Shown: positions 3,818 to 46,446 of the stretch, piece after piece | How the letters are laid out: the number at the start of each line of letters is the position of its first letter | Position numbering within the stretch: the stretch's first letter is position 1 | From: a virus | Lineage: Duplodnaviria > Heunggongvirae > Uroviricota > Caudoviricetes | Virus record (IMG/VR): IMGVR_UViG_3300046522_000750 | DNA length: 64,000 nt | Reading direction: 5' to 3' (one strand) | Made by a program: the position numbers and the translations under genes | Notes under the pieces: model-generated | Seen by the model: the letters and a program-made list of their open reading frames with translations, nothing else | What the model was told of the DNA's origin: nothing | Database searches by the model: none

Positions 3818-4135
3818 TTAGGAGACCTTAGCCTGGCAGAGTTTTTTGTAGATATTCTCACCCACGACAATTCCCAACAGGGTCAACAGGGCACTGCCGA
3901 GGTAAATAATAACGAGATTAATTGAAGGATCTTCGACCAGAGGCTCGGCACCATAAACCAGGCGTTCAAGACTCAGCATGCAGAATAGGCCACTCACGAA
4001 AGAAATTGACCACATCAGCCATGTGTAAAACTTAGCTCTAGGCCTTTTGTAGTCACGTGCGCATGAAAAAGCACTCATAACCAATGAAATAGCGAGAAAG
4101 GTGATAAATAATACTAAGGCTCGCGTTTCGAACAT
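3818..4135 (-). CDS. small membrane protein (3 predicted TM helices)
   Basis: Hydrophobic segments LVLFITFLAISLVMSAF, WLMWSISFVSGLFCMLSL, VIIYLGSALLTLLGIVV. Confidence 0.55.
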   Translation of the reverse strand: MFETRALVLFITFLAISLVMSAFSCARDYKRPRAKFYTWLMWSISFVSGLFCMLSLERLVYGAEPLVEDPSINLVIIYLGSALLTLLGIVVGENIYKKLCQAKVS

Positions 4136-11179: not shown

Positions 11180-11551
11180 ATGAACCTGGTAGAAAAAGGC
11201 ATACTGAACGGCGAAATCCCTTTTGGTGATTTGAGCCCGGCTGAGCGCACGAGCATTCTCCAGTCCCTGACCACCGGGCAATTGAAACCTCAACCAGGTG
11301 TCGAACAAAACCACATCTTGGGCCTACTGCTCAGCGGATTTTTCAAGCCAGGAAGCTCAGATTACCGCCAGGCAACCGGAATACTTAAGCGCTGGCATAG
11401 CGCCGACGATGTAGCGCCACAGGTCTCCAACAAACACGGTGCAAAGATGTTCTCCGAGATATTCGGAATCAAGACCGCCGAATCCCTTCTGCCATCTGAT
11501 CTATTCTTGCAGGCCAAAGGACAACTTCTGGAAGATGCCTTGGGGCTATGA
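11180..11551 (+). CDS. LGL-tail family B paralog B1 (short form, 123 aa)
   Basis: C-term EIFGIKTAESLLPSDLFLQAKGQLLEDALGL; stop overlaps start of B2. Confidence 0.7.
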   Translation: MNLVEKGILNGEIPFGDLSPAERTSILQSLTTGQLKPQPGVEQNHILGLLLSGFFKPGSSDYRQATGILKRWHSADDVAPQVSNKHGAKMFSEIFGIKTAESLLPSDLFLQAKGQLLEDALGL

Positions 11552-12132
11552 TGAGCGAAGCCAAAAACACTGAGACAAAACCTTACCTGGAAATGAGCGT
11601 GCAAGAACGCCGTATATGGATCCGTGGACTCATGGAAGACGGAACGTATCCCTACCAAAAGAACATCTCCGTCGAAGACATAATTGAGAACGGTCTGACG
11701 TACAGGGATCCGGAATGGGACTACTACCGATATCGCGTCCAATTGGAAGGCGTCGATCCAGCCCTGGCGGCCAAGTATGTGCAGACCTGCAACAGTGCTC
11801 GTTTTTTCATGGACGCCTATGGGCTTGAGCGATCAAAGCCGTACTTGTCGAGCTACCTTTGGATCTATGCGTACCATAGCTCAGTCGGAAAATTCGAGAA
11901 TAACGCACAAACCAAGCGTGACATTGGCCTGCTCATTGCTGACAGAGGGGCAGACCTTGTCTGTGAGGAAATCAGGAGTCGAAACCCTGCGGAGATTAAT
12001 ATAATGATGCTTCTCAAGCACTGGGGAGAAAGTTTCGTCGATATCCTCGGACACAAAGCCGTTTCCGGATTGCCGCCTGCGCTGGCCAACAAAATCAAAG
12101 GCGTGTCTCTCGAAGAGGCATTAGGCCTGTGA
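11548..12132 (+). CDS. LGL-tail family B paralog B2 (194 aa)
   Basis: Family motifs ERRIWIRGLMEDGTYP, YYRYR.QLE..DPA, ARFF..AYGLERSKPYLSS..W; tail KGVSLEEALGL. Confidence 0.8.
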   Translation: MMSEAKNTETKPYLEMSVQERRIWIRGLMEDGTYPYQKNISVEDIIENGLTYRDPEWDYYRYRVQLEGVDPALAAKYVQTCNSARFFMDAYGLERSKPYLSSYLWIYAYHSSVGKFENNAQTKRDIGLLIADRGADLVCEEIRSRNPAEINIMMLLKHWGESFVDILGHKAVSGLPPALANKIKGVSLEEALGL

Positions 12133-12710
12133 TGGAAAATTCTACTCATCTAACCGAAAAGCCATTCCTGAGCCTGACCATGGCTGAGCGCCGAGAATAC
12201 ATTCGCGGATTGATGCTCGATGGTTCCTATCCCAACGATGAATCCATGAGTGTTCGCAAAATCGTGGACAATGGCATGGAGTGTCGAGAAGTCGAGCGCG
12301 ATTATTACCGATTCCGCATTCAGCTCGAAAACATCGATCCGGCAGTGTCCGCACCCGAGATCAAGACCAATCAGGCCCGATTCTTCCTTGAAGCCTACGG
12401 ACTTGAGCGCGCCAGCCCGTTTCTCTCCAGCTATACATGGATCTGTGCTTGCTCCAATTTAAGGAACAAATCTTCTGCGAGTCCTCAGACAACACAGCAC
12501 ATAAAGATGATCTTGGTGAAGCGTGGCGCTGACAAGGTCTGCGAAGAAGTCAGAAACCGTACGCCGGAACAGATCAAGCGCATGAATTTCTCTGCACTTT
12601 GGGGGCAAAATTTCATCGAGATTTTTGGCCTGAAGGCTCTTAATGGATTGCCGCCCGAGATGGCCAGTCGCTTCAAGGCTCGACACCTTGAGAGTGCCAT
12701 GGGCCTTTGA
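12129..12710 (+). CDS. LGL-tail family B paralog B3 (193 aa)
   Basis: Same motif set; tail KARHLESAMGL; start overlaps B2 stop (GTGATG). Confidence 0.8.
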   Translation: MMENSTHLTEKPFLSLTMAERREYIRGLMLDGSYPNDESMSVRKIVDNGMECREVERDYYRFRIQLENIDPAVSAPEIKTNQARFFLEAYGLERASPFLSSYTWICACSNLRNKSSASPQTTQHIKMILVKRGADKVCEEVRNRTPEQIKRMNFSALWGQNFIEIFGLKALNGLPPEMASRFKARHLESAMGL

Positions 12711-12728
12711 CGACCACCGGAGAAGACA

Positions 12729-13322
12729 ATGTCCCCAGAGCAGCTAGAAAAATTTAACGAGAAACGACTCAGGGAAGAGGCGTTGGCCGAATCCTTCAGC
12801 GCCCTGCCCCCGGACGAACGCGAGTTCTTTGTCCGCGAGCAGATCAGGCGAGGCGAGTACGCCAGCGACTCAAAGCTGAGCATCCAGGACATCCTGAATC
12901 TGGTCGATATTTATGGCGAATGGGAGCCTGAATATTATCGCTACCGGATGGCACTTGAAGCCATCGACCCAGCGATTGTGGAACAGGATATTCACAGTAA
13001 GGATGAAGCCAGAATCTTCGTCGAATCCTATGGCCATGAGCGCGCCAAACCATTTTTGCCAAGCCGGCTTTGGCTCGAAGCCTACAATGACGGCAGCACA
13101 AAGATTGAAACGCGCCACAACATCAAGTACATCCTGGAGTGCCGTGGGCCTGAGAAAATTGCAGCGGAAGTCTACAAGGAAATGTCGGTCTCACTCAAAA
13201 GCGATGAGCGTTTGGGCCGAATCATCATCCATATTTTTGGGATCAAAGCGGCTACGTTTTTTCCAGCCGAGCTGGCGCGTAAGCTCAAAGGGCAGCACGT
13301 GGAAGACGCACTGGGTCTGTGA
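12729..13322 (+). CDS. LGL-tail family B paralog B4 (197 aa)
   Basis: Same motif set; tail KGQHVEDALGL. Confidence 0.8.
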   Translation: MSPEQLEKFNEKRLREEALAESFSALPPDEREFFVREQIRRGEYASDSKLSIQDILNLVDIYGEWEPEYYRYRMALEAIDPAIVEQDIHSKDEARIFVESYGHERAKPFLPSRLWLEAYNDGSTKIETRHNIKYILECRGPEKIAAEVYKEMSVSLKSDERLGRIIIHIFGIKAATFFPAELARKLKGQHVEDALGL

Positions 13323-13361
13323 CTACCAATTAGGTCATGCAGGCCCTCTGAGCGCCTCAGA

Positions 13362-13712
13362 TCAAAGCAACGGATTTTCTAGCACGTACTGGCGCAGTCG
13401 AATCTTAACGCCGTCTTGGTAGCTACGTGGGGCCCCAGCATCGGCCATGGCGAACTCGATGGCATCAATAGTCTTGAAGTCGTACCAGCCGGCCTTGCGA
13501 GCGGCTTCAACAAAGCTTGGCCACTCGACTTCTACGCCGCGTGCCTGGAGCTGATCCAGAGCGTTTTCCAGCGATAAGCCATGAGTGTCTTTGAGTTCGA
13601 ACAGACGGGATCCTGGGAAGTGCATGTGGACTGGCCTCGTGGCAGTGGTCTGGATTGGCAATACTCGCAAAATGTTTGTTACCTTACAAGGCTGATATCT
13701 GCGGAATGCCAA
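13362..13712 (-). CDS. hypothetical protein on opposite strand inside the B array (probably shorter, from internal Met)
   Basis: ORF between B4 and B5; no family motifs. Confidence 0.3.
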   Translation of the reverse strand: MAFRRYQPCKVTNILRVLPIQTTATRPVHMHFPGSRLFELKDTHGLSLENALDQLQARGVEVEWPSFVEAARKAGWYDFKTIDAIEFAMADAGAPRSYQDGVKIRLRQYVLENPLL

Positions 13713-13782
13713 GGAAAGCTAGGCCGGCAAGCCGGAATAGACGACTTCTCTCGCCAATACACTTTGAGCATTCGCCGAACCC

Positions 13783-14379
13783 ATGAAACGACCGAAGAAA
13801 ATGGCCGATCTTACCGCCGAAGAATTCAGGAATTACGATGGCAAGCGAATACACAACGCACCACTCACATTCCAGGTTTTCGATTCAGATCAACGGCGAG
13901 CATGGGTAAAGGCCGAGCTTAGATCTGGCGATTACGCCGTGGAGAAAAAACTGTCCGCTCGCGACATTTTGTCTTTTGGCTCAGGCCTATTTCAGTGGTG
14001 TCCGGAATACTTTCTCTACCTGATTTTGCTTGCTCGCCATGATCCAGCGGAGGCAGAGGCGCACATTACGAACAATAACCGCGCCATCTTCTTCCTGCGG
14101 GCGTATGGGCTCGAACGAGCAAAGTCATTTGTCTCCAGCCAACAATGGCTGATGGCCATCGACTATTTTATCGGTACGGCCTTCGACAAAAAGACACGAC
14201 ATCAGATAAAGCTTCTTTTGAAGGAGCGCAGAGCCGAGCAGATTGCCCCACTGATCGACGGCATGACCGCAGGCCTCCACTTTCTGGATATTTTTGGCAT
14301 TGAGGCCCTTCCACTGCTGACCCACGACCTGGCAAAGCAGATCAAGGGCCGTCATCTTGAAAGCAAACTAGGTTTGTAA
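13783..14379 (+). CDS. LGL-tail family B paralog B5 (198 aa)
   Basis: Motifs DQRRAWVKAELRSGDYA, YFLYLILLARHDPAEAEAHI, FFLRAYGLERAKSFVSSQQW; tail KGRHLESKLGL. Confidence 0.8.
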   Translation: MKRPKKMADLTAEEFRNYDGKRIHNAPLTFQVFDSDQRRAWVKAELRSGDYAVEKKLSARDILSFGSGLFQWCPEYFLYLILLARHDPAEAEAHITNNNRAIFFLRAYGLERAKSFVSSQQWLMAIDYFIGTAFDKKTRHQIKLLLKERRAEQIAPLIDGMTAGLHFLDIFGIEALPLLTHDLAKQIKGRHLESKLGL

Positions 14380-14953
14380 TGACCATTACGCACGAAGACT
14401 GCTTGAAATACGACAGGAAATACATCTATAACCGGCCTCTAAATTTCGCCGACCTAAGCGCTGCTGAACGACACGCATGGGTCGATACCGAGCTGAGAGC
14501 CGGTGATTATGCGGACGTAAAAGGACTGCCTCTCGAGTATGTGTTGGCTTTCGGGGCCACCACCAATGAATGGTATCCTGAGTACTATCTGTATCTCATT
14601 TTATTGTCGGGATTTGATCCTGCTCAAACCGCGCCACACATTACGCGGGCAATCAGGGCAGTGTTTTTTATACTGGCCTATGGCGTCGAGTTGGCGCTCC
14701 CTATGTATCCACCAGTGTATGGCTTGAAGCAATGAGGGAGCCCCCCTTCACCCCAGAAGAGATAAAAGCGAGGGACATGATCGAGCTTCTGCTGAAACGT
14801 CGTGGTGTAGACCTCGTCGCCCCCTTCATCACGGACAAAGACACCGGCGAAATCTTTGTCGAGGTTTTTGGTGTCAAATCGCTTACTTTGCTGCCCGATG
14901 ACATCGCAAATCAGGTCAAGGGTCGACTACTTGAGGCGGAATTGGGTCTGTGA
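14379..14953 (+). pseudogene. family B paralog B6, frameshifted
   Basis: N-terminal part (14379-14735, ...AVFFILAYGVELALPMYPP) and C-terminal part (14732-14953, ...KGRLLEAELGL) are homologous to intact B members but lie in different frames. Confidence 0.65.
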
Positions 14954-15490
14954 GCCCCATAATGAAAATGAATGAAGAAAATATTGAGAGCATTGAAGCC
15001 AAGCTTTACGAAGGAAACCCGTTTCCTGGCAAGCCTGCCGACTTCCGTCATCGCAGCTACACGGCGCGTCGGGAGTGGGTTTTGAATGAGATGGCTCGTG
15101 GAGATTTTGAGAGAGAAAAAAGCCTAGGCGTTGAAGAGGTTATTTTCTTTTGTTGCACTTACGGGCCCAGTTCCCCAATGCACTTCATGTTCCGATCTTT
15201 GCTGTAACGATTTGAGCCTGAAGAGGCCGCCAGGCACGTGAAAATAAACATGCACGCGATCAGCTTTTTCCAGGCCTTTGGCTTAGAGCGTTCAAAACCA
15301 TTCGTGTCCAATGAAATTTGGCTGACGGTCTTTGCACATAACGCATTGATGAAGCCTGACAAGGTCGATCTGGACGGCATAAGGCTTCTTATTGAAAGCC
15401 GTGGTGATGAACAAATTGCCAAATTCATAAAAAACAAAGAACAGAGTGCCATTTTCATCGAAATTTTTGGCTTTAATTCGTTCTCTTTAC
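14950..15490 (+). pseudogene. family B paralog B7, 5' portion (in-frame TAA at 15205-15207, then truncated by IS insertion)
   Basis: 14950-15207 and 15238-15490 are one frame and both align to family B (…EPEEAARHVKINMHAISFFQAFGLERSKPFVSNEIW…EIFGFNSFSLP); homology stops at TTAC 15487-15490. Confidence 0.65.
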
Positions 15491-16735
15491 CAACAAAAGC
15501 GCGAAATGCTCCACCCAATTGAGAAAAACAGGAGCCTGCGACTTCATTGACAATTGGCTGGAGATGGACAGCGCAGCGGCGTAGCCGCCATCGCTTGAAA
15601 TTCAAAAAATAGACCTCATAGTCGTTTGCATGACCGATATGAAATCGACCAAAACCCTGAAGATTCGAGTGCGCGACAAGCACGCAGCGCAGCTGCGTGA
15701 ATGGTCTCGTTCGGTGAATTTCGTGTGGAACTATGTGAACGAATTGAGCAGTCGCTCAATTCGCGAGCACGGTCGCTTTCTATCGGCATTCGATATCCAC
15801 AAGTACACCAACGGCGCCAGCAAAGAACTGGGTTTACACAGCCAGACCGTGCAGGGCATCGCCGACGAATACGTAACCCGCCGCAAGCAGTTCAAGAAGC
15901 GCCAGCTGCGCTGGCGCATCTCGGGCGGAGCGAGACGCAGCCTAGGCTGGGTGCCATTCAAAGTCGGTGCGGCGACTTGGAAAAATGGCCAGGTCTGCTT
16001 CAGCAAAGAGTACTTCAAGGTATGGGATAGTTACGGCCTGGCCGATTACAAATTCCGCGCCGGCAGCTTCAACGAAGACTCGCGGGGCCGCTGGTACTTC
16101 AACGTCGTTGTTGAGGTCGACCGAGAGCTATCGCCAGGCCAGGACGCCATCGGCATCGACTTGGGGCTGAAAACCGTTGCCACCTGCAGCGATGGTCACA
16201 AGCTTGAAAACGGACGCTTCTACCGCGATTTAGAGAAGGCGCTGGGCACCGCCCAGCGCGCCGGCAAGAAAGCCCGCGTGCGGGCGATTCACGCCAAGAT
16301 CGCGAACCGTCGAAAGGATGCTTTGCACAAATTCAGCACAGCGCTGGTGAAGCGTTGTGGCTTGATTGTGGTGGGCGATGTCAGCTCACTAAAACTCGCG
16401 AAAACCATGATGGCCAAGTCGGTGATGGATGCCGGCTGGGGCCAATTGAGAACGATGCTGGCCTACAAATGCGATCACGCAGGCATCCTTTTCAAGGTGA
16501 AAAACGAGAGCAACACCACCCAACCCTGCTCGGACTGCAAGAAATTGCCAGATTCGAGGCCGAGAGGTATCGCAGGGGGCTCGGAATAAGAGAATGGACT
16601 TGTAGTGAGTGCGGTGCCACTCACGACCGCGACGTCAATGCCGCCAAGAACATTCTCGCGCTCGGGCAAGAGCGTCCTACAGAGGGAATCCCCTTCCAAA
16701 TCACATGATTTGGTGGGGGTGGATGTCAATACTGC
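15491..16735 (+). mobile_element. IS200/IS605-family TnpB-only insertion sequence (about 1.24 kb) inserted 3' of TTAC
   Basis: Host B7 reading frame is broken after ...ttctctTTAC and resumes at 16736 (cagatctcgcaaaacag = DLAKQ...); element contains tnpB and a subterminal hairpin (GCGGCgtaGCCGC at ~15570). Confidence 0.75.
15630..16708 (+). pseudogene. tnpB: TnpB (IS605 OrfB-type RNA-guided nuclease), apparent -1 frameshift in a G5 run at 16575-16579
   Basis: ORF 15630-16589 (319 aa) carries RuvC-like core (IDLGLKTVATCSDG...) and continues in another frame as GLGIREWTCSECGATHDRDVNAAKNILALG (zinc finger plus RuvC-III) to 16708. Confidence 0.75.
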
Positions 16736-16791
16736 CAGATCTCGCAAAACAGGTAAAGGGACAGCTTCTGGAAGATTCATTGGGACTATGA
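16736..16791 (+). pseudogene. family B paralog B7, 3' fragment displaced by the IS
   Basis: Encodes DLAKQVKGQLLEDSLGL*, the family tail; in-register continuation of ...FSLP at 15490. Confidence 0.65.
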
Positions 16792-16862
16792 ATCGGATCA
16801 TTCGCCAAGCAAAAGCTCCCAGGCTAAAATGAAACGACGCCACTTAGGGAAGCACTCGGCCT

Positions 16863-17441
16863 ATGAAAAACCTCACCAAGCGCCAGCTCGAAGATTACGA
16901 CAACTGCAGAATTAGGCCGCCAGCAGACTACCAAGCCATGGACACCGACCAGCGCCGGGCCTTCGTCCTTCAGGAGATAGAGTCTGGTAAGCACTCCGTG
17001 GAGGAAAGCCTCTCCATTCACGACATTCTGCACTTCAGCGGGCAGACGGGCTGCGAAAGCCCTGAATACTTTCTCTATCGAATCCTCCTTGAGCGAAAAG
17101 ACCCCTCTGAAGTTGAGCAGCACCTGAAGGAAGATCTCGACTACATGCTGTTCTTCGAGCTTTACGGCATCGAGAGCGCCAAGACTCATCTGAAAAGTGC
17201 TCGGCTACTGGATCTCCATCACCTCATCGAATATTACGGTGATGACATCTACGTCAGTGCGAACGACATCGAGCTTATGCTCCACGAGCGAGGCTGTGAA
17301 GCCGTCGCTGCCGAGGTCACGAACAAAAAACTGTGCGAAAGCTACGTCGAGATATTTGGCCTTCAGTCCATCAAGTTTGTGCGAAAAGACGTCGCCAACA
17401 AGTTCAAGGGTGATCGACTAGAAGAGGGTCTCGGCCTATGA
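16863..17441 (+). CDS. LGL-tail family B paralog B8 (192 aa)
   Basis: Motifs DQRRAFVLQEIESGKHS, YFLYRILLERKDPSEVEQHL; tail KGDRLEEGLGL. Confidence 0.8.
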   Translation: MKNLTKRQLEDYDNCRIRPPADYQAMDTDQRRAFVLQEIESGKHSVEESLSIHDILHFSGQTGCESPEYFLYRILLERKDPSEVEQHLKEDLDYMLFFELYGIESAKTHLKSARLLDLHHLIEYYGDDIYVSANDIELMLHERGCEAVAAEVTNKKLCESYVEIFGLQSIKFVRKDVANKFKGDRLEEGLGL

Positions 17442-17502
17442 ATCCGATCAGAGACTAGGTGTTGTAGAATCGATAAGCGTTGTACAAAGAGAGCCAGCTT
17501 CT

Positions 17503-17545
17503 CAGCCCAAAGGCCGGCACCTCGAAGATCAGCTTGGCCTTTGAC
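17503..17545 (+). pseudogene. remnant of a family B gene (tail only)
   Basis: cagcccaaaggccggcacctcgaagatcagcttggcctttga encodes QPKGRHLEDQLGL*, which matches the B10 tail; no upstream ORF. Confidence 0.5.
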
Positions 17546-17616
17546 CGTCGACCAGCTTTCTTGCACCAGCAAGAGCTAGATTTAAACGCAGCCCCGTCAC
17601 CGGAAGTTACGACCTC

Positions 17617-17991
17617 GTGCAAAGAGAACGACCCCAGAAAACAGCTCGCGAGACTCTAGAGGCAAACATCGCCAAGGACGCCGCAACCATCAAGTCTCGC
17701 CTGGGCGCCAGAGACTTTGTATCGAGATGGGGTGTCGATAATTGCAAGCCATACTTAACGGAGGATTTATGGCTTGACGCATACTTATTGGTGAGCAACA
17801 GATCTGAAAAGAGCATGATTGCCGATATCCTGCATTCTCGTGGTGCTGAAAAAACCGCACAAGCCGCAACCACCCAGGAAAAGGGGATGGTGCTGATCGA
17901 GATCTTTGGGATGGGTGCCCACAAGCTCTTGTCCTGGGAGATATCTAACAAGGTCAAAGGCCGTCACCTAGAGAATGAGCTTGGCCTATAG
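17617..17991 (+). CDS. LGL-tail family B paralog B9 (short form, 124 aa)
   Basis: KPYLTEDLWLDAYLL core; tail KGRHLENELGL. Confidence 0.75.
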   Translation: MQRERPQKTARETLEANIAKDAATIKSRLGARDFVSRWGVDNCKPYLTEDLWLDAYLLVSNRSEKSMIADILHSRGAEKTAQAATTQEKGMVLIEIFGMGAHKLLSWEISNKVKGRHLENELGL

Positions 17992-18063
17992 CCTTCGCCT
18001 ACAATTTCTTGCGCCAGCAAGAGCTACGATTTCAGTAGACCAGTGACCAAGTGACAGGAATCC

Positions 18064-18447
18064 ATGCCGAGAACAAAGCCAAAGAAAACAACCAGGCATG
18101 TCTATGGCAACAGCCTCTCCAAAGACATCGCGCACATCTGGACTGGCCACGGAGCGAATATTCTTGCATCAAGATGGGGAGCGGTTAATTCCAGGGCGCA
18201 TCTCAGCGATGACCTGTGGCTGGACGCGTACCTGATCAGCCAATCCAAGGACGACATGGATCAGATGTTGATTATCAGCGAAATCCTCAAATATCGCGGC
18301 GTGGTACAAGTGGCGCAAGCCGCCACTACGACTGAAAAGGGGATGATCGTGATCGAAGTCTTTGGCTTCGAGGCGCACAAGTACCTACCCAGCGATATTT
18401 CCAGACAGGTCAAAGGCCGGCACCTTGAAGATCAGCTGGGCCTATAA
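18064..18447 (+). CDS. LGL-tail family B paralog B10 (short form, 127 aa)
   Basis: Close paralog of B9 (AHLSDDLWLDAYLIS..., VAQAATTTEKGMIVIEVFGFEAHKYLP); tail KGRHLEDQLGL. Confidence 0.75.
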   Translation: MPRTKPKKTTRHVYGNSLSKDIAHIWTGHGANILASRWGAVNSRAHLSDDLWLDAYLISQSKDDMDQMLIISEILKYRGVVQVAQAATTTEKGMIVIEVFGFEAHKYLPSDISRQVKGRHLEDQLGL

Positions 18448-22379: not shown

Positions 22380-23609
22380 TCAATCGAACCCAGGCGTCGA
22401 GTCATCCAGCCTGTCACGCAGCCTCAGCGCAGGCAGCTCATCAACGTCGATGGAGAAAAGTCCCATCTTTTCGCGCAACTCGGCGATTCGCTCTGGACTG
22501 ACTCCTTCATCAAAATCCTGTTGAGCCAGCTTTTCAGGCACCGCCACCCTCGGCTCGCAGATGAAGCGGCGATCCACGACACCAATGTGCTGTTCAATCG
22601 CATGGAACAGGGCCTTAGGGTCGTTGCCGATGTACCTGCCCGAATGTTTGAGGCTGTTGAGCTCAACCAGAACTGGCCCGCGCTCAGTGATGCCGAAGTC
22701 GGCCACATACGACGGCGCCAAATGGGTGTTCTGCTGGGCGAATTCTTCAGCCAGCTTTTGAATCGCAGCCGGCACCGGATAGCTCACATAGTCGGTGTAC
22801 GACGACAGGCTGGTGACCTTTCCATCGACAATAAACGCTCGGTATTCGCCCTTGTGCTCGGGCGCCCTTTCGAACGTCAGCACATCAGAAAGCATCACAC
22901 CCTCTTCAGGGTCGAACAGACACAGTCGGCCAGGCTCCATGCTGTCCCGATACGGGCAATACCACCTGGGCATCTGGAAGAAGGCCATGAAATCACTGTC
23001 TTTAGCGCTTGGGTCGAAAATCATTTTGTCCCCAAACAGAGCTTTTAGATCTCCGAGCGGCTTGATCATCGCGTACAAGTCATCCTCGGTCTGCAGGACG
23101 TGGTGCAGACTGAAGCCACTGCCCTTCTCCACTCCCTTGATGAACACAGGAGTACGGATATCCCCGGCAGCCATCATCTCGTTGAACCTCGCCTTGCTCA
23201 GATCAACCACAGTGCGCTGTAGAAAGTGGTCTGAGTTGTTGAGGTGTCTTGGCCAGTGCTTGACGACATCGTCATTGACCTCGGAGATGTAGCGCGCAAA
23301 ACCGTCCAGGTCGGGATGAGAGAGGTTGACCGAATTCAAACGCATGACCACTTGGCTGGCCAGGCTCATTTTGGTCACGTCGGTGTTGGAATCGATGATC
23401 TCGACCGGCTTGGTCTTATCGCCAAAGCTGAAGTTCTTGCTGACCACCACATAAGGGATTTCAAGCGCCCGGCAGGCCAGTATTTCCCCGGCGTGTTCGC
23501 GGTTGACGCAGTAATCCATTTCTTCGTTCTGCTCGGTGTCGCCATGAGCGGCAACACCCAAAAAGTCACTGAGGCAATCGGCTGACTCAAATTCAAAAAC
23601 TACTAGCAT
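22380..23609 (-). CDS. ATP-grasp fold protein (RimK-like peptide/protein ligase family)
   Basis: C-terminal ATP-grasp signature FGITERGPVLVELNSLKHSG (compare RimK RGPLVMEVNASPG), EYRAFIVDGKV, PVFIKGVEKGSGFS; lies 30 nt downstream of the tail-bearing gene 23640-24278 on the same strand. Confidence 0.55.
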   Translation of the reverse strand: MLVVFEFESADCLSDFLGVAAHGDTEQNEEMDYCVNREHAGEILACRALEIPYVVVSKNFSFGDKTKPVEIIDSNTDVTKMSLASQVVMRLNSVNLSHPDLDGFARYISEVNDDVVKHWPRHLNNSDHFLQRTVVDLSKARFNEMMAAGDIRTPVFIKGVEKGSGFSLHHVLQTEDDLYAMIKPLGDLKALFGDKMIFDPSAKDSDFMAFFQMPRWYCPYRDSMEPGRLCLFDPEEGVMLSDVLTFERAPEHKGEYRAFIVDGKVTSLSSYTDYVSYPVPAAIQKLAEEFAQQNTHLAPSYVADFGITERGPVLVELNSLKHSGRYIGNDPKALFHAIEQHIGVVDRRFICEPRVAVPEKLAQQDFDEGVSPERIAELREKMGLFSIDVDELPALRLRDRLDDSTPGFD

Positions 23610-44690: not shown

Positions 44691-45568
44691 AGGCCGAGTG
44701 CATCCTCAAGCAGCATGCCCCTGAGGGGTTTGTTTTTCTTGGCATGCGCCAGCAGCACCTCAGGAGGATAAACGTCCAGAAGGATTTTTCTCTGCTCTTT
44801 GGTGTACATCACCTTGAGTACTCGATCAGTCGGGAAGGTTTTCAGCAGGGCGCAATACAAATGGCGATCTGAACTGCCCTCTTTTGACTGGGTGATGATG
44901 GATGCCAGCTCAAAGATCCCTTTCGGCCTGTAGGGCTTACGATTATGAATCCTCTCTGGCCAGCCACCCTCCTGAACCATCTTGTCCAGCAGGTTTCTAT
45001 GACCGCGAGTGATCAGGTCTGCGTAGTACACGGCATTATTAAGTAACATGGCTTTCGCTGAAGCCCAGGCAACGTTTTGTATCCCGACGTTCATGGCGAA
45101 TGTGTAGTTGCTGGCACCCACGCGATCAATCATCTCCTGAGTCAGCAAGGGCTTGATCCATTGCTGACCGAGTCCCAATAGCGTCATGTGCTTGGGATCG
45201 TGATCGAGAATGGCATTGACCGTTTCAGTGGTTCTGAAGCTTTCGTGAACCACCATGAAGCCATGGCCATGGGTGGCGGTGGCCATCAATACCAGATCCA
45301 GGTAGATGTCGGTGTCCTTAGGATCAATGAACTTGAGCGCTCGCACGCCAAATTCAACCGCTAAGCGCCTGATTTTGTCATTGACCAGGTGCTTCGGGAT
45401 TTGCTGCAGCGACCAATCAGAGGACTGGCTGCGCAATGTGATGCTCGACTCAAGCCACTTGAACGCGACGTCTGAGTCACGAAGCGACTCAGGAATGACC
45501 TGAAAATCCGTGAATACGGCACTGTAGTCTTGGTTGCCCAGGTCTTTCAGCAATTGTTCCTTATTCAT
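44687..45568 (-). CDS. LGL-tail family A paralog A13 (293 aa)
   Basis: Tail RGMLLEDALGL; ATGA junctions. Confidence 0.85.
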   Translation of the reverse strand: MNKEQLLKDLGNQDYSAVFTDFQVIPESLRDSDVAFKWLESSITLRSQSSDWSLQQIPKHLVNDKIRRLAVEFGVRALKFIDPKDTDIYLDLVLMATATHGHGFMVVHESFRTTETVNAILDHDPKHMTLLGLGQQWIKPLLTQEMIDRVGASNYTFAMNVGIQNVAWASAKAMLLNNAVYYADLITRGHRNLLDKMVQEGGWPERIHNRKPYRPKGIFELASIITQSKEGSSDRHLYCALLKTFPTDRVLKVMYTKEQRKILLDVYPPEVLLAHAKKNKPLRGMLLEDALGL

Positions 45569-46446
45569 AATCCCAGCGCATCCTCAAGCAGTGTTCCTCG
45601 AAGATGACGGTCTTCTTTGGCGTGAACAAGCAGCGCCTCGGGCGGGTAGATCTCCAGAAGCAATTTGCGCTTCTCTGGCGTGTTCATCACCTTGAACACC
45701 TTATCAATCGGGAATGTTTGCAGGTGGGCGCGGTACAGGTAGTGCATGGCACTGCCCTCCTCCGCATTCATCAGCAGCCTGGCCAACACGGTAAGCCTCT
45801 CAGGCTTGTAGTTGTAGTAACCATCAAGCTTCGCCGGCCAGCCGCCTTCCTGAATCATTTTGACAATCAGATCGCCACCGCCGCGCTGGGTCAGGTCTTG
45901 GTAGAAATCCGGATTATTTACCAGCATCTCTTTGACCGACGACCAGGCCACGTTCCGGATGCCGACGCTCATTGCGAAGGGATAGCTTATAGCCGCCACT
46001 CGATCAATCATGGCCTGGGTCAACAATGGCTTCATCCACTGGTGACCATTCCAATTCATCGACATGTGCTGGGGGTTGTGATCGATGATCGCCTCGAGCG
46101 TTTCAAGGGTCTGGAAGCTCTCGTGAATCATGATGTAGCCAAAGCTCGAAGCCGAGGTGGCTTGCAGCACCAGCTCCATGTAAATGTCGGTGTCTTGCGG
46201 ATCGATGAACATCAAGGCCCGGACGCTGGTTTTCACAGCGGTGCGACGAATCAGATCATTGACCAAATGCTTTGGAATACGCTCAAGCGCCGAATCAGCG
46301 CCCATATTGCGCACCAGGACGCTCGTTACCAGCCATTTGTGCGCGACCTCGAAATCACGGAGTTCTTCCGGAATCGATTCGAAGGAGGAGAACCGGGCCG
46401 CGTGCTTCGGGTCATCTAAAGCGATCATCAATAACTGCTTATTCAT
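45565..46446 (-). CDS. LGL-tail family A paralog A14 (293 aa)
   Basis: Tail RGTLLEDALGL; ATGA junctions. Confidence 0.85.
   Translation of the reverse strand: MNKQLLMIALDDPKHAARFSSFESIPEELRDFEVAHKWLVTSVLVRNMGADSALERIPKHLVNDLIRRTAVKTSVRALMFIDPQDTDIYMELVLQATSASSFGYIMIHESFQTLETLEAIIDHNPQHMSMNWNGHQWMKPLLTQAMIDRVAAISYPFAMSVGIRNVAWSSVKEMLVNNPDFYQDLTQRGGGDLIVKMIQEGGWPAKLDGYYNYKPERLTVLARLLMNAEEGSAMHYLYRAHLQTFPIDKVFKVMNTPEKRKLLLEIYPPEALLVHAKEDRHLRGTLLEDALGL

Follow-up and report, generated by a model that had tools for sequence, protein, structure and literature searches.

Gene B7, a member of a paralogous family (family B) on the + strand of a 64,000-nt stretch of DNA (the window, meaning that whole stretch), breaks off at position 15490 and resumes on the far side of an insert. 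What is the intervening DNA, how did it arrive, and could its gene still be functional? A sequence-only reading had proposed a TnpB-only IS200/IS605 element of about 1.24 kb, and the measured length of 1,239 bp agrees with that estimate. We assign a probability of roughly 90% to the conclusion that positions 15491-16729 (+ strand) constitute a non-autonomous, tnpB-only IS200/IS605 insertion sequence with IS608-type ends that was recently inactivated. The relevant features are as follows.

14950-15490, + strand: host family-B gene B7, 5' portion (ATG start of the ortholog at 14962), from gap-free alignment to L003 7339-7929 and L004 2301-2903
15487-15490, + strand: TTAC target and left cleavage tetranucleotide, expected to be the TAM; host DNA outside the element, which L003 and L004 also have at their empty sites
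15491-16729, + strand: complete TnpB-only IS200/IS605 (IS608-like) element, from restoration of the host gene on excision and ends common to relatives
15491-15629, + strand: left end, with an 18-nt spacer containing AATG and an imperfect palindrome, from DNA folding, hairpin scan and element L016
15630-16589, + strand: tnpB frame A, 319 codons and stop, from Pfam, homolog alignment and alignment to ISDra2 TnpB 8bf8
16558-16729, + strand: omega-RNA-like structured scaffold overlapping the tnpB 3' end and the right end, from covariance model R1 and covariation
16575-16579, + strand: G5 run with a 2-nt (GG) insertion at which the frame shifts; 46 of 46 aligned relatives and L166 have GCA-GGN
16577-16708, + strand: tnpB frame B remnant, from Pfam TNB positions 38-60, homolog alignment and tblastn
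16686-16729, + strand: right-end transposase signals, from DNA folding; …GGAAT-hairpin-(A/T)GGATGTCAA is conserved in relatives
16730-16745, + strand: host sequence TACTGCCAGATCTCGC, putative guide of a read-through omega-RNA, positioned from the right-end boundary
16730-16791, + strand: host gene B7, 3' portion (…LLPDLAKQVKGQLLEDSLGL*), from empty-site alignment and the restored ORF

The boundaries of the element were established by comparison with empty sites. Two strains whose gene neighborhood matches that of the window, L003 (JGI sample 3300049459) and L004 (SRR26075480), carry an intact counterpart of B7 (L003 7339-7929 and L004 2301-2903, encoding 196 and 200 aa, respectively). In silico removal of 15491-16729 yields a gap-free, in-frame alignment with this uninterrupted orthologous gene and brings back a 603-nt in-frame ORF that matches both the ortholog and the window paralogs end to end (…FGFNSFSLLLPDLAKQVKGQLLEDSLGL). 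The host is thereby confirmed as a paralogous family-B gene, and the homology of its flanks to intact genes, a point on which the sequence-only reading had made its case depend, holds under alignment without gaps. With a slash marking the junction, the element-excised window reads …TTCTCTTTAC/TACTGCCAGAT… and the empty site …TTCTCTTTAC/AGCTCCCAGAG…; written with the element in place, the empty allele of L003 and L004 is …TTCTCTTTAC/AGCTCC… and the window is …TTCTCTTTAC/(1,239 bp)/TACTGCC…. TTAC directly precedes the point at which the window departs from the empty sites, exactly where the insertion had been placed, and the insertion 3' of this tetranucleotide is accompanied by no target-site duplication, as is typical of the IS200/IS605 family.

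The right boundary, by contrast, had been set at 16735 with the host resuming at 16736, and the empty-site alignment together with the ends of relatives moves it 6 nt leftward. The element finishes …GGATGTCAA at 16729 (its right-end sequence is also given as …TGATTTGGTGGGGGTGGATGTCAA), and host sequence runs from 16730 in the frame FSL-L-LPDLAKQ…. The similarity of relatives to the element ceases exactly at 15491 and 16729. The three closest elements and every relative inspected end …GGATGTCAA and then diverge at once, and this right terminus is identical in more than 150 relatives.

The two ends display the architecture of the IS200/IS605 family: each carries a subterminal imperfect palindrome, both on one strand, and terminal inverted repeats are absent. 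On the left, the 18-nt spacer concludes with the guide tetranucleotide AATG (15505-15508), which is followed by an imperfect palindrome whose 13-bp arms (15509-15521 and 15551-15563) include a single C·C mismatch and enclose a loop of 29 nt. The right end comprises, in order, GAAT (16686-16689), an imperfect palindrome (16690-16719), the linker TGGATG and the cleavage tetranucleotide TCAA (16726-16729), which finishes 10 nt 3' of the hairpin foot. Hairpin scanning and DNA folding thus located at both ends the subterminal hairpins whose absence had been named as an argument against the element. Their single-sequence z-scores are weak (-0.6 and -1.6), and the case for them is therefore carried by comparative evidence: the right-end stem covaries across relatives. 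At the left end, the base just 5' of the hairpin changes in step with the fourth base of the target. Among non-redundant left ends, TTAC goes with AATG or AAAG and TTAT with AAAA or AAGA, in counts that are approximate given that the hairpin finder misplaced some stems. Expressed as a pattern, the partner of TTAC is AA(A/T)G and that of TTAT is AA(A/G)A, and the window follows this rule with TTAC and AATG. Relatives occupy sites after TTAT (55) or TTAC (6); the search pattern for this tally required TTA, so that only the fourth base is informative and the unbiased target evidence for the window is the empty site.

Both hairpins are enlarged compared with those of most relatives. This enlargement is not damage, as an identical right end occurs in L166 and a near-identical long-hairpin left end in the Pseudomonas serbica element L016 (L016 2862-3000), both of which are intact. 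The element as a whole looks mosaic, with a left end of the P. serbica L016 type and a right end and 3' two-thirds of tnpB that are nearly those of L166. The left end of L166 itself (about 3889-4000) is of the short type and is placed after TTAT. The sequence pattern suggests recombination between element variants.

The right end also encodes a conserved RNA structure. An Rfam scan of 14500-17800 at E≤1 retrieved no omega-RNA family, and the RNA is consequently assigned by position and covariation only; matches to STnc420 and bxd_2 in the same interval were at chance level and were rejected. When the 3'-terminal 160 nt of 42 non-redundant relatives were aligned, with the window left out, five helices totaling 25 base pairs were supported, with 95.8% of cells paired. 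Compensatory change is seen in 15 of these 25 pairs, compared with 2-6 in controls with partners slid by 1-3 columns, and none of 500 shuffles matches the observed pairing and covariation values. Covariance model R1 matches the window once, at 16558-16729 (138.1 bits, E 2e-36, full length 1-160), terminating exactly at the right-end boundary and accommodating the GG as an insertion after model position 18 and, in the terminal loop, a second insertion of 10 nt. R1 also matches L166, and intact long-loop elements score 138-148 bits. Outside the training set, exactly one match was found downstream of tnpB at each of 80 metagenome loci (80/80), and covariation persists on these independent loci in an alignment fitted to the model. 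The MFE fold of the window RNA regains the model helices and adds a helix GUGAGUG/CACUCAC. The helix GAGUG…CACUC (16606-16622) displays visible covariation and is present in the MFE fold; it was excluded from R1 because the MAFFT alignment mixes two registers there. Folding of the right end, proposed earlier as a check for a TnpB-type scaffold, recovers covarying helices. By analogy with ISDra2 (PMC10097598), this structured RNA would be an omega-RNA scaffold with its guide at 16730-16745 (TACTGCCAGAUCUCGC). The earlier proposal of a right-end RNA with a guide in the adjacent host sequence stands as regards the RNA, with the start of the putative guide corrected from 16736 to 16730.

The putative guide stretch differs from the empty-site allele at 5 of its 16 positions (16730, 16731, 16734, 16740 and 16743), including the TAM-proximal positions 1, 2 and 5. 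The left flank has no mismatch to the empty allele over its last 28 nt, and the gene-wide divergence of B7 from that allele is 7.8%. Five or more mismatches occur in just 0.4% of 16-nt windows (5.1 kb), a frequency calculated for an observation made post hoc. Recombination import of an occupied allele, chance, and guide-target selection are all possible sources of this divergence. Under the first, the element would have arrived by homologous recombination of a foreign occupied allele and not by transposition in this lineage. We regard that as unlikely. The clustering of five mismatches within 16 nt to the right of the element is in its favor, as is the combination of a left end of the P. serbica L016 type with an L166-like right end and 3' two-thirds of tnpB; however, the undiverged left flank argues against it, and the changes cannot be polarized because the B7 cluster consists only of window fragments and the L003/L004 alleles, with one empty allele type. 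The original event would in either case have been a TTAC-targeted transposition. It is more doubtful still that the stretch records a population footprint of TnpB-driven conflict, in which selection would drive guide and target apart between alleles with and without the IS. If this were true, empty alleles mismatching the guide would escape cleavage and homing. Transposition into B7 is the reading retained below.

The sole gene of the element encodes a TnpB, and the RuvC motifs and zinc finger ascribed to it are borne out by several searches. Pfam OrfB_IS605 (PF01385) matches at 1.2e-16, Cas12f1-like_TNB (PF07282) is divided between two frames (6.3e-09 and 2.5e-09), and the family profile matches PDB ISDra2 TnpB 8bf8 at 4.5e-25. 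A search of 5.8 billion proteins retrieved 7,989 homologs at E≤1e-20, typically 350-360 aa long and originating chiefly from Pseudomonas, Azotobacter/Azomonas and Acinetobacter. Two of the TnpB clusters, with 44 and 49 member sequences, come from Pseudomonas sp. StFLB209. The closest intact TnpB (P0001) is 94% identical to that of the window, and the assignment is thus no chance resemblance. Both tnpB frames have the coordinates first read for them, 15630-16589 and an end at 16708. Frame A contains WED/REC, RuvC-I D177, G249, the candidate relocated glutamate E293 and the first CxxC (C300, C303). Frame B, reading …LGIREWTC(325)SEC(328)GATHD(333)RD(335)VNAAKNIL…, contributes the second CxxC and the RuvC-III DRDxN. 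No single ORF holds the complete catalytic triad, D177 and E293 lying in frame A and D335 (DRDVN) in frame B.

Throughout this TnpB family, the canonical RuvC-II glutamate (ISDra2 E278) aligns to Gly249, and Glu293, located 44 residues downstream, is invariant. In the known "RuvC-II rearranged" TnpB clades, Gly replaces Glu and an alternative Glu is predicted to compensate (PMC10691335). The family matches this group by sequence, and activity of its intact members through the relocated Glu is a prediction.

The change of frame was correctly located at the G5 run (16575-16579). Its description as a homopolymer frameshift was right in placing the shift within a G run, but the lesion is a +2 insertion of GG (G3 to G5) in codon 316/317 and not a 1-nt slip. 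Intact copies read GCA GGG CTT (relatives GCA GGG CTN) where the window reads GCA GGG GGC TC, and frame A then stops at TAA 16587-16589. The extra GG was found in none of 46 aligned relatives, making it unique to the window among 47 aligned sequences, and every aligned homolog protein reads …RPRGIA-GLGIREWTC… across the site. L166 lacks the GG as well; this intact copy of 358 aa has an identical long-loop right end and comes from the sample that also contains the empty site. As a result of the frameshift, RuvC-I/II and the first CxxC are left in one reading frame and the second CxxC and RuvC-III in another. With D177, E293, C300 and C303 in frame A and C325, C328 and D335 in frame B, neither the zinc finger nor the active site can form, and from characterized relatives the window nuclease would be expected to be dead. 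The truncated 319-aa product is recorded from a 1.13-Mb JGI contig and from the Logan assembly of SRR26076530, in a protein cluster of 3 members, the others being full length. Over codons 111-359, the window and L166 differ by 24 synonymous and 3 non-synonymous changes, which implies purifying selection on tnpB until recently; on this sequence comparison, the lesion appears recent.

Could the extra GG be a sequencing or assembly artifact at the homopolymer, with tnpB intact in reality? The position of the lesion within a G run is compatible with this, the remainder of tnpB looks selected by the 24-to-3 count relative to L166, and the JGI and Logan assemblies were probably built from the same reads. 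On the other hand, two different assemblers arrived at an identical sequence, the Logan assembly L005 (SRR26076530) equaling the window over 6,960 bp with the GG insertion included. A +2 consensus error in a run of just 3-5 G would be unusual, and the GG is accompanied by a T-to-C change two bases downstream. We therefore consider an artifact improbable and treat the lesion as real.

Co-option of the truncated 319-aa protein and its intact RNA as a nuclease-dead, RNA-guided DNA binder of the TldR type is very improbable. The portion cut off does correspond to the part missing from nuclease-dead TnpB derivatives, and the RNA scaffold retains its 138-bit score, but the protein is present as a single copy whose truncated form is not conserved (the cluster of 3 described above), both transposon ends are intact and the lesion appears recent. 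Furthermore, the window was searched for the first 12 guide nucleotides preceded by a TTA(C/T) TAM, at a tolerance of up to 4 mismatches. Apart from the flank of the element itself, in front of which TCAA and not TTAC stands, no intact TAM was found next to a match with fewer than 3 mismatches. That full-length TnpB arises through ribosomal frameshifting or transcriptional slippage programmed at the G run was rejected as next to incredible: the downstream frame is intact through RuvC-III, but the insertion is not conserved (none of 46 aligned relatives, nor L166), GCA-GGG-GGC does not fit the slippery heptamer X XXY YYZ, and frame A terminates just three codons past the run. An inactivating, recent GG insertion thus remains the favored account of tnpB.

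Mobility of the element would depend on a transposase from elsewhere. A tblastn search found no tnpA in the element or in the window, in agreement with the TnpB-only description. Among relatives, a divergently oriented Y1 tnpA (Pfam Y1_Tnp 1.5e-42) lies directly upstream of tnpB at 36 of 163 loci, and the other 127 have no adjacent tnpA; tnpB-only elements are typical of the IS200/IS605 family (PMC10691335). The window copy is a non-autonomous derivative, a recognized state in this family. A scan of genome and metagenome contigs with the repaired TnpB retrieved 160 relatives, all in other genomes and at best 85-86% identical. It had been proposed to look for further copies and to see whether they also sit in A or B genes. 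Searches by blastn, tblastn and covariance model found no second copy or solo end in the window, and L001 and L166, the closest copies, are flanked by sequence without homology to it, which places those insertions elsewhere and, as far as visible, not in A or B genes. In L001, which carries the closest TnpB relative, a gene for an R2K-clade ATP-grasp protein (L001 2320-3081) adjoins that element's right end and overlaps it. A second protein of that clade is encoded at window 22380-23609 (- strand), where it was the only match in a Pfam scan of 9 window ORFs besides tnpB; the flanks of the two ATP-grasp loci share no homology.

Gene B7 is a pseudogene that was inactivated twice, by the IS insertion and by a nonsense codon (TAA at 15205-15207; CAG in the orthologs of L003 and L004) that killed the gene independently of the insertion. 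The insertion into B7 was probably neutral. Family B has no Pfam match and yielded only 5 homologs among 5.8 billion proteins, so the array, which spans window 11548-18447 (+ strand) and has a counterpart at L003 3924-9151, is an orphan. Relative to L003 and L004, a 1-nt indel divides B6 in two (14379-14735 and 14732-14953), and the segment at about 17400-18000 is rearranged or deleted compared with a 191-aa gene at L003 8576-9151. The family-B array appears to be decaying in the window strain. Elsewhere in the window, at 33904-63655 (- strand), lie 33 paralogous genes arranged head to tail. They encode about 290-310 aa each, at a mean pairwise identity of 27% (range 17-58%); the single member scanned (45565-46446) has no Pfam match. 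Three C-termini inspected in this array end …LRGTLLEDALGL, …LLESAMGL and …LECEMGL, and the same motif ends family-B proteins, a sequence similarity that suggests a C-terminal module or signal common to the A and B families. As to the organism, a DUF808 protein of the window is 72-73% identical to Pseudomonas proteins, and relatives of the element are frequent on Pseudomonas plasmids; the probable host is an uncultured Pseudomonadaceae bacterium.

By analogy with characterized relatives, the element would have arrived by single-strand "peel-and-paste" transposition, in which a Y1 (HUH) TnpA acting in trans pasted it 3' of TTAC on the top strand without target duplication. In an intact copy, TnpB would act with an RNA of about 170 nt derived from the tnpB 3' end and right end, using the extension into the flank as a guide. 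Such a complex would cut the TTAC-flanked empty site, TTAC serving as the presumed TAM, and retention of the element would be favored. In the window copy, the GG insertion truncates TnpB after the first CxxC with loss of the second CxxC and the RuvC-III aspartate, leaving the RNA scaffold and both transposase-recognition ends intact. The element is an ordinary transposon remnant from a very common Pseudomonadales TnpB family. For annotation, the analysis supplies exact element boundaries and the recognition that B7, within a decaying orphan array, is a pseudogene inactivated twice. It also provides a clean occupied/empty-site pair for an abundant Pseudomonadales TnpB family with Gly in place of the RuvC-II glutamate, and the alignment and covariance model furnish this family's RNA scaffold and TTAC/TTAT target rule, which can be used in mining for such TnpBs.

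Among known systems, IS608 of Helicobacter pylori displays the same insertion 3' of TTAC without duplication, a TCAA right terminus 10 nt 3' of the palindrome foot (PMC3201880), the right guide GAAT with the right cleavage site TCAA (PMC5934647), a left guide just 5' of the left palindrome that pairs with the target (GL/CL rule, PMC5934647), and tnpB at the right end. Unlike IS608, the window copy has no tnpA, and the tnpA of its relatives is divergent from tnpB. Its left guide is AATG instead of AAAG, its left spacer measures 18 nt instead of 19 nt, and its palindromes are enlarged (29-nt loop on the left, 14-bp arms on the right). IS1341-type and other tnpB-only derivatives (PMC10691335) likewise have tnpB as their sole gene, a length of about 1.2 kb and a need for TnpA in trans; nothing substantive sets the window copy apart from them save its frameshifted tnpB, and the tnpB-only configuration is the commonest in the family (127 of the 163 relatives here are without adjacent tnpA).

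ISDra2 TnpB (PDB 8bf8, 8exa, 8h1j) shares the order RuvC-I, RuvC-II, zinc finger and RuvC-III, the RuvC-III DRDxN, and a structured RNA overlapping the gene's 3' end and stopping at the right-end boundary, where the guide (putative here) begins. The differences are that similarity is recognizable over the C-terminal half only, that E278 corresponds to Gly249 with an invariant E293 44 residues downstream, and that the target/TAM is TTAC/TTAT in the window family versus TTGAT in ISDra2. In these active-site residues the family resembles the RIIr TnpB clades (PMC10691335), which have Gly where the canonical Glu would be, with an invariant substitute Glu further downstream, a role in the active site being predicted for E293. 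As in those clades, the elements are mobile, are associated with Y1 TnpA and retain DRDxN in RuvC-III.
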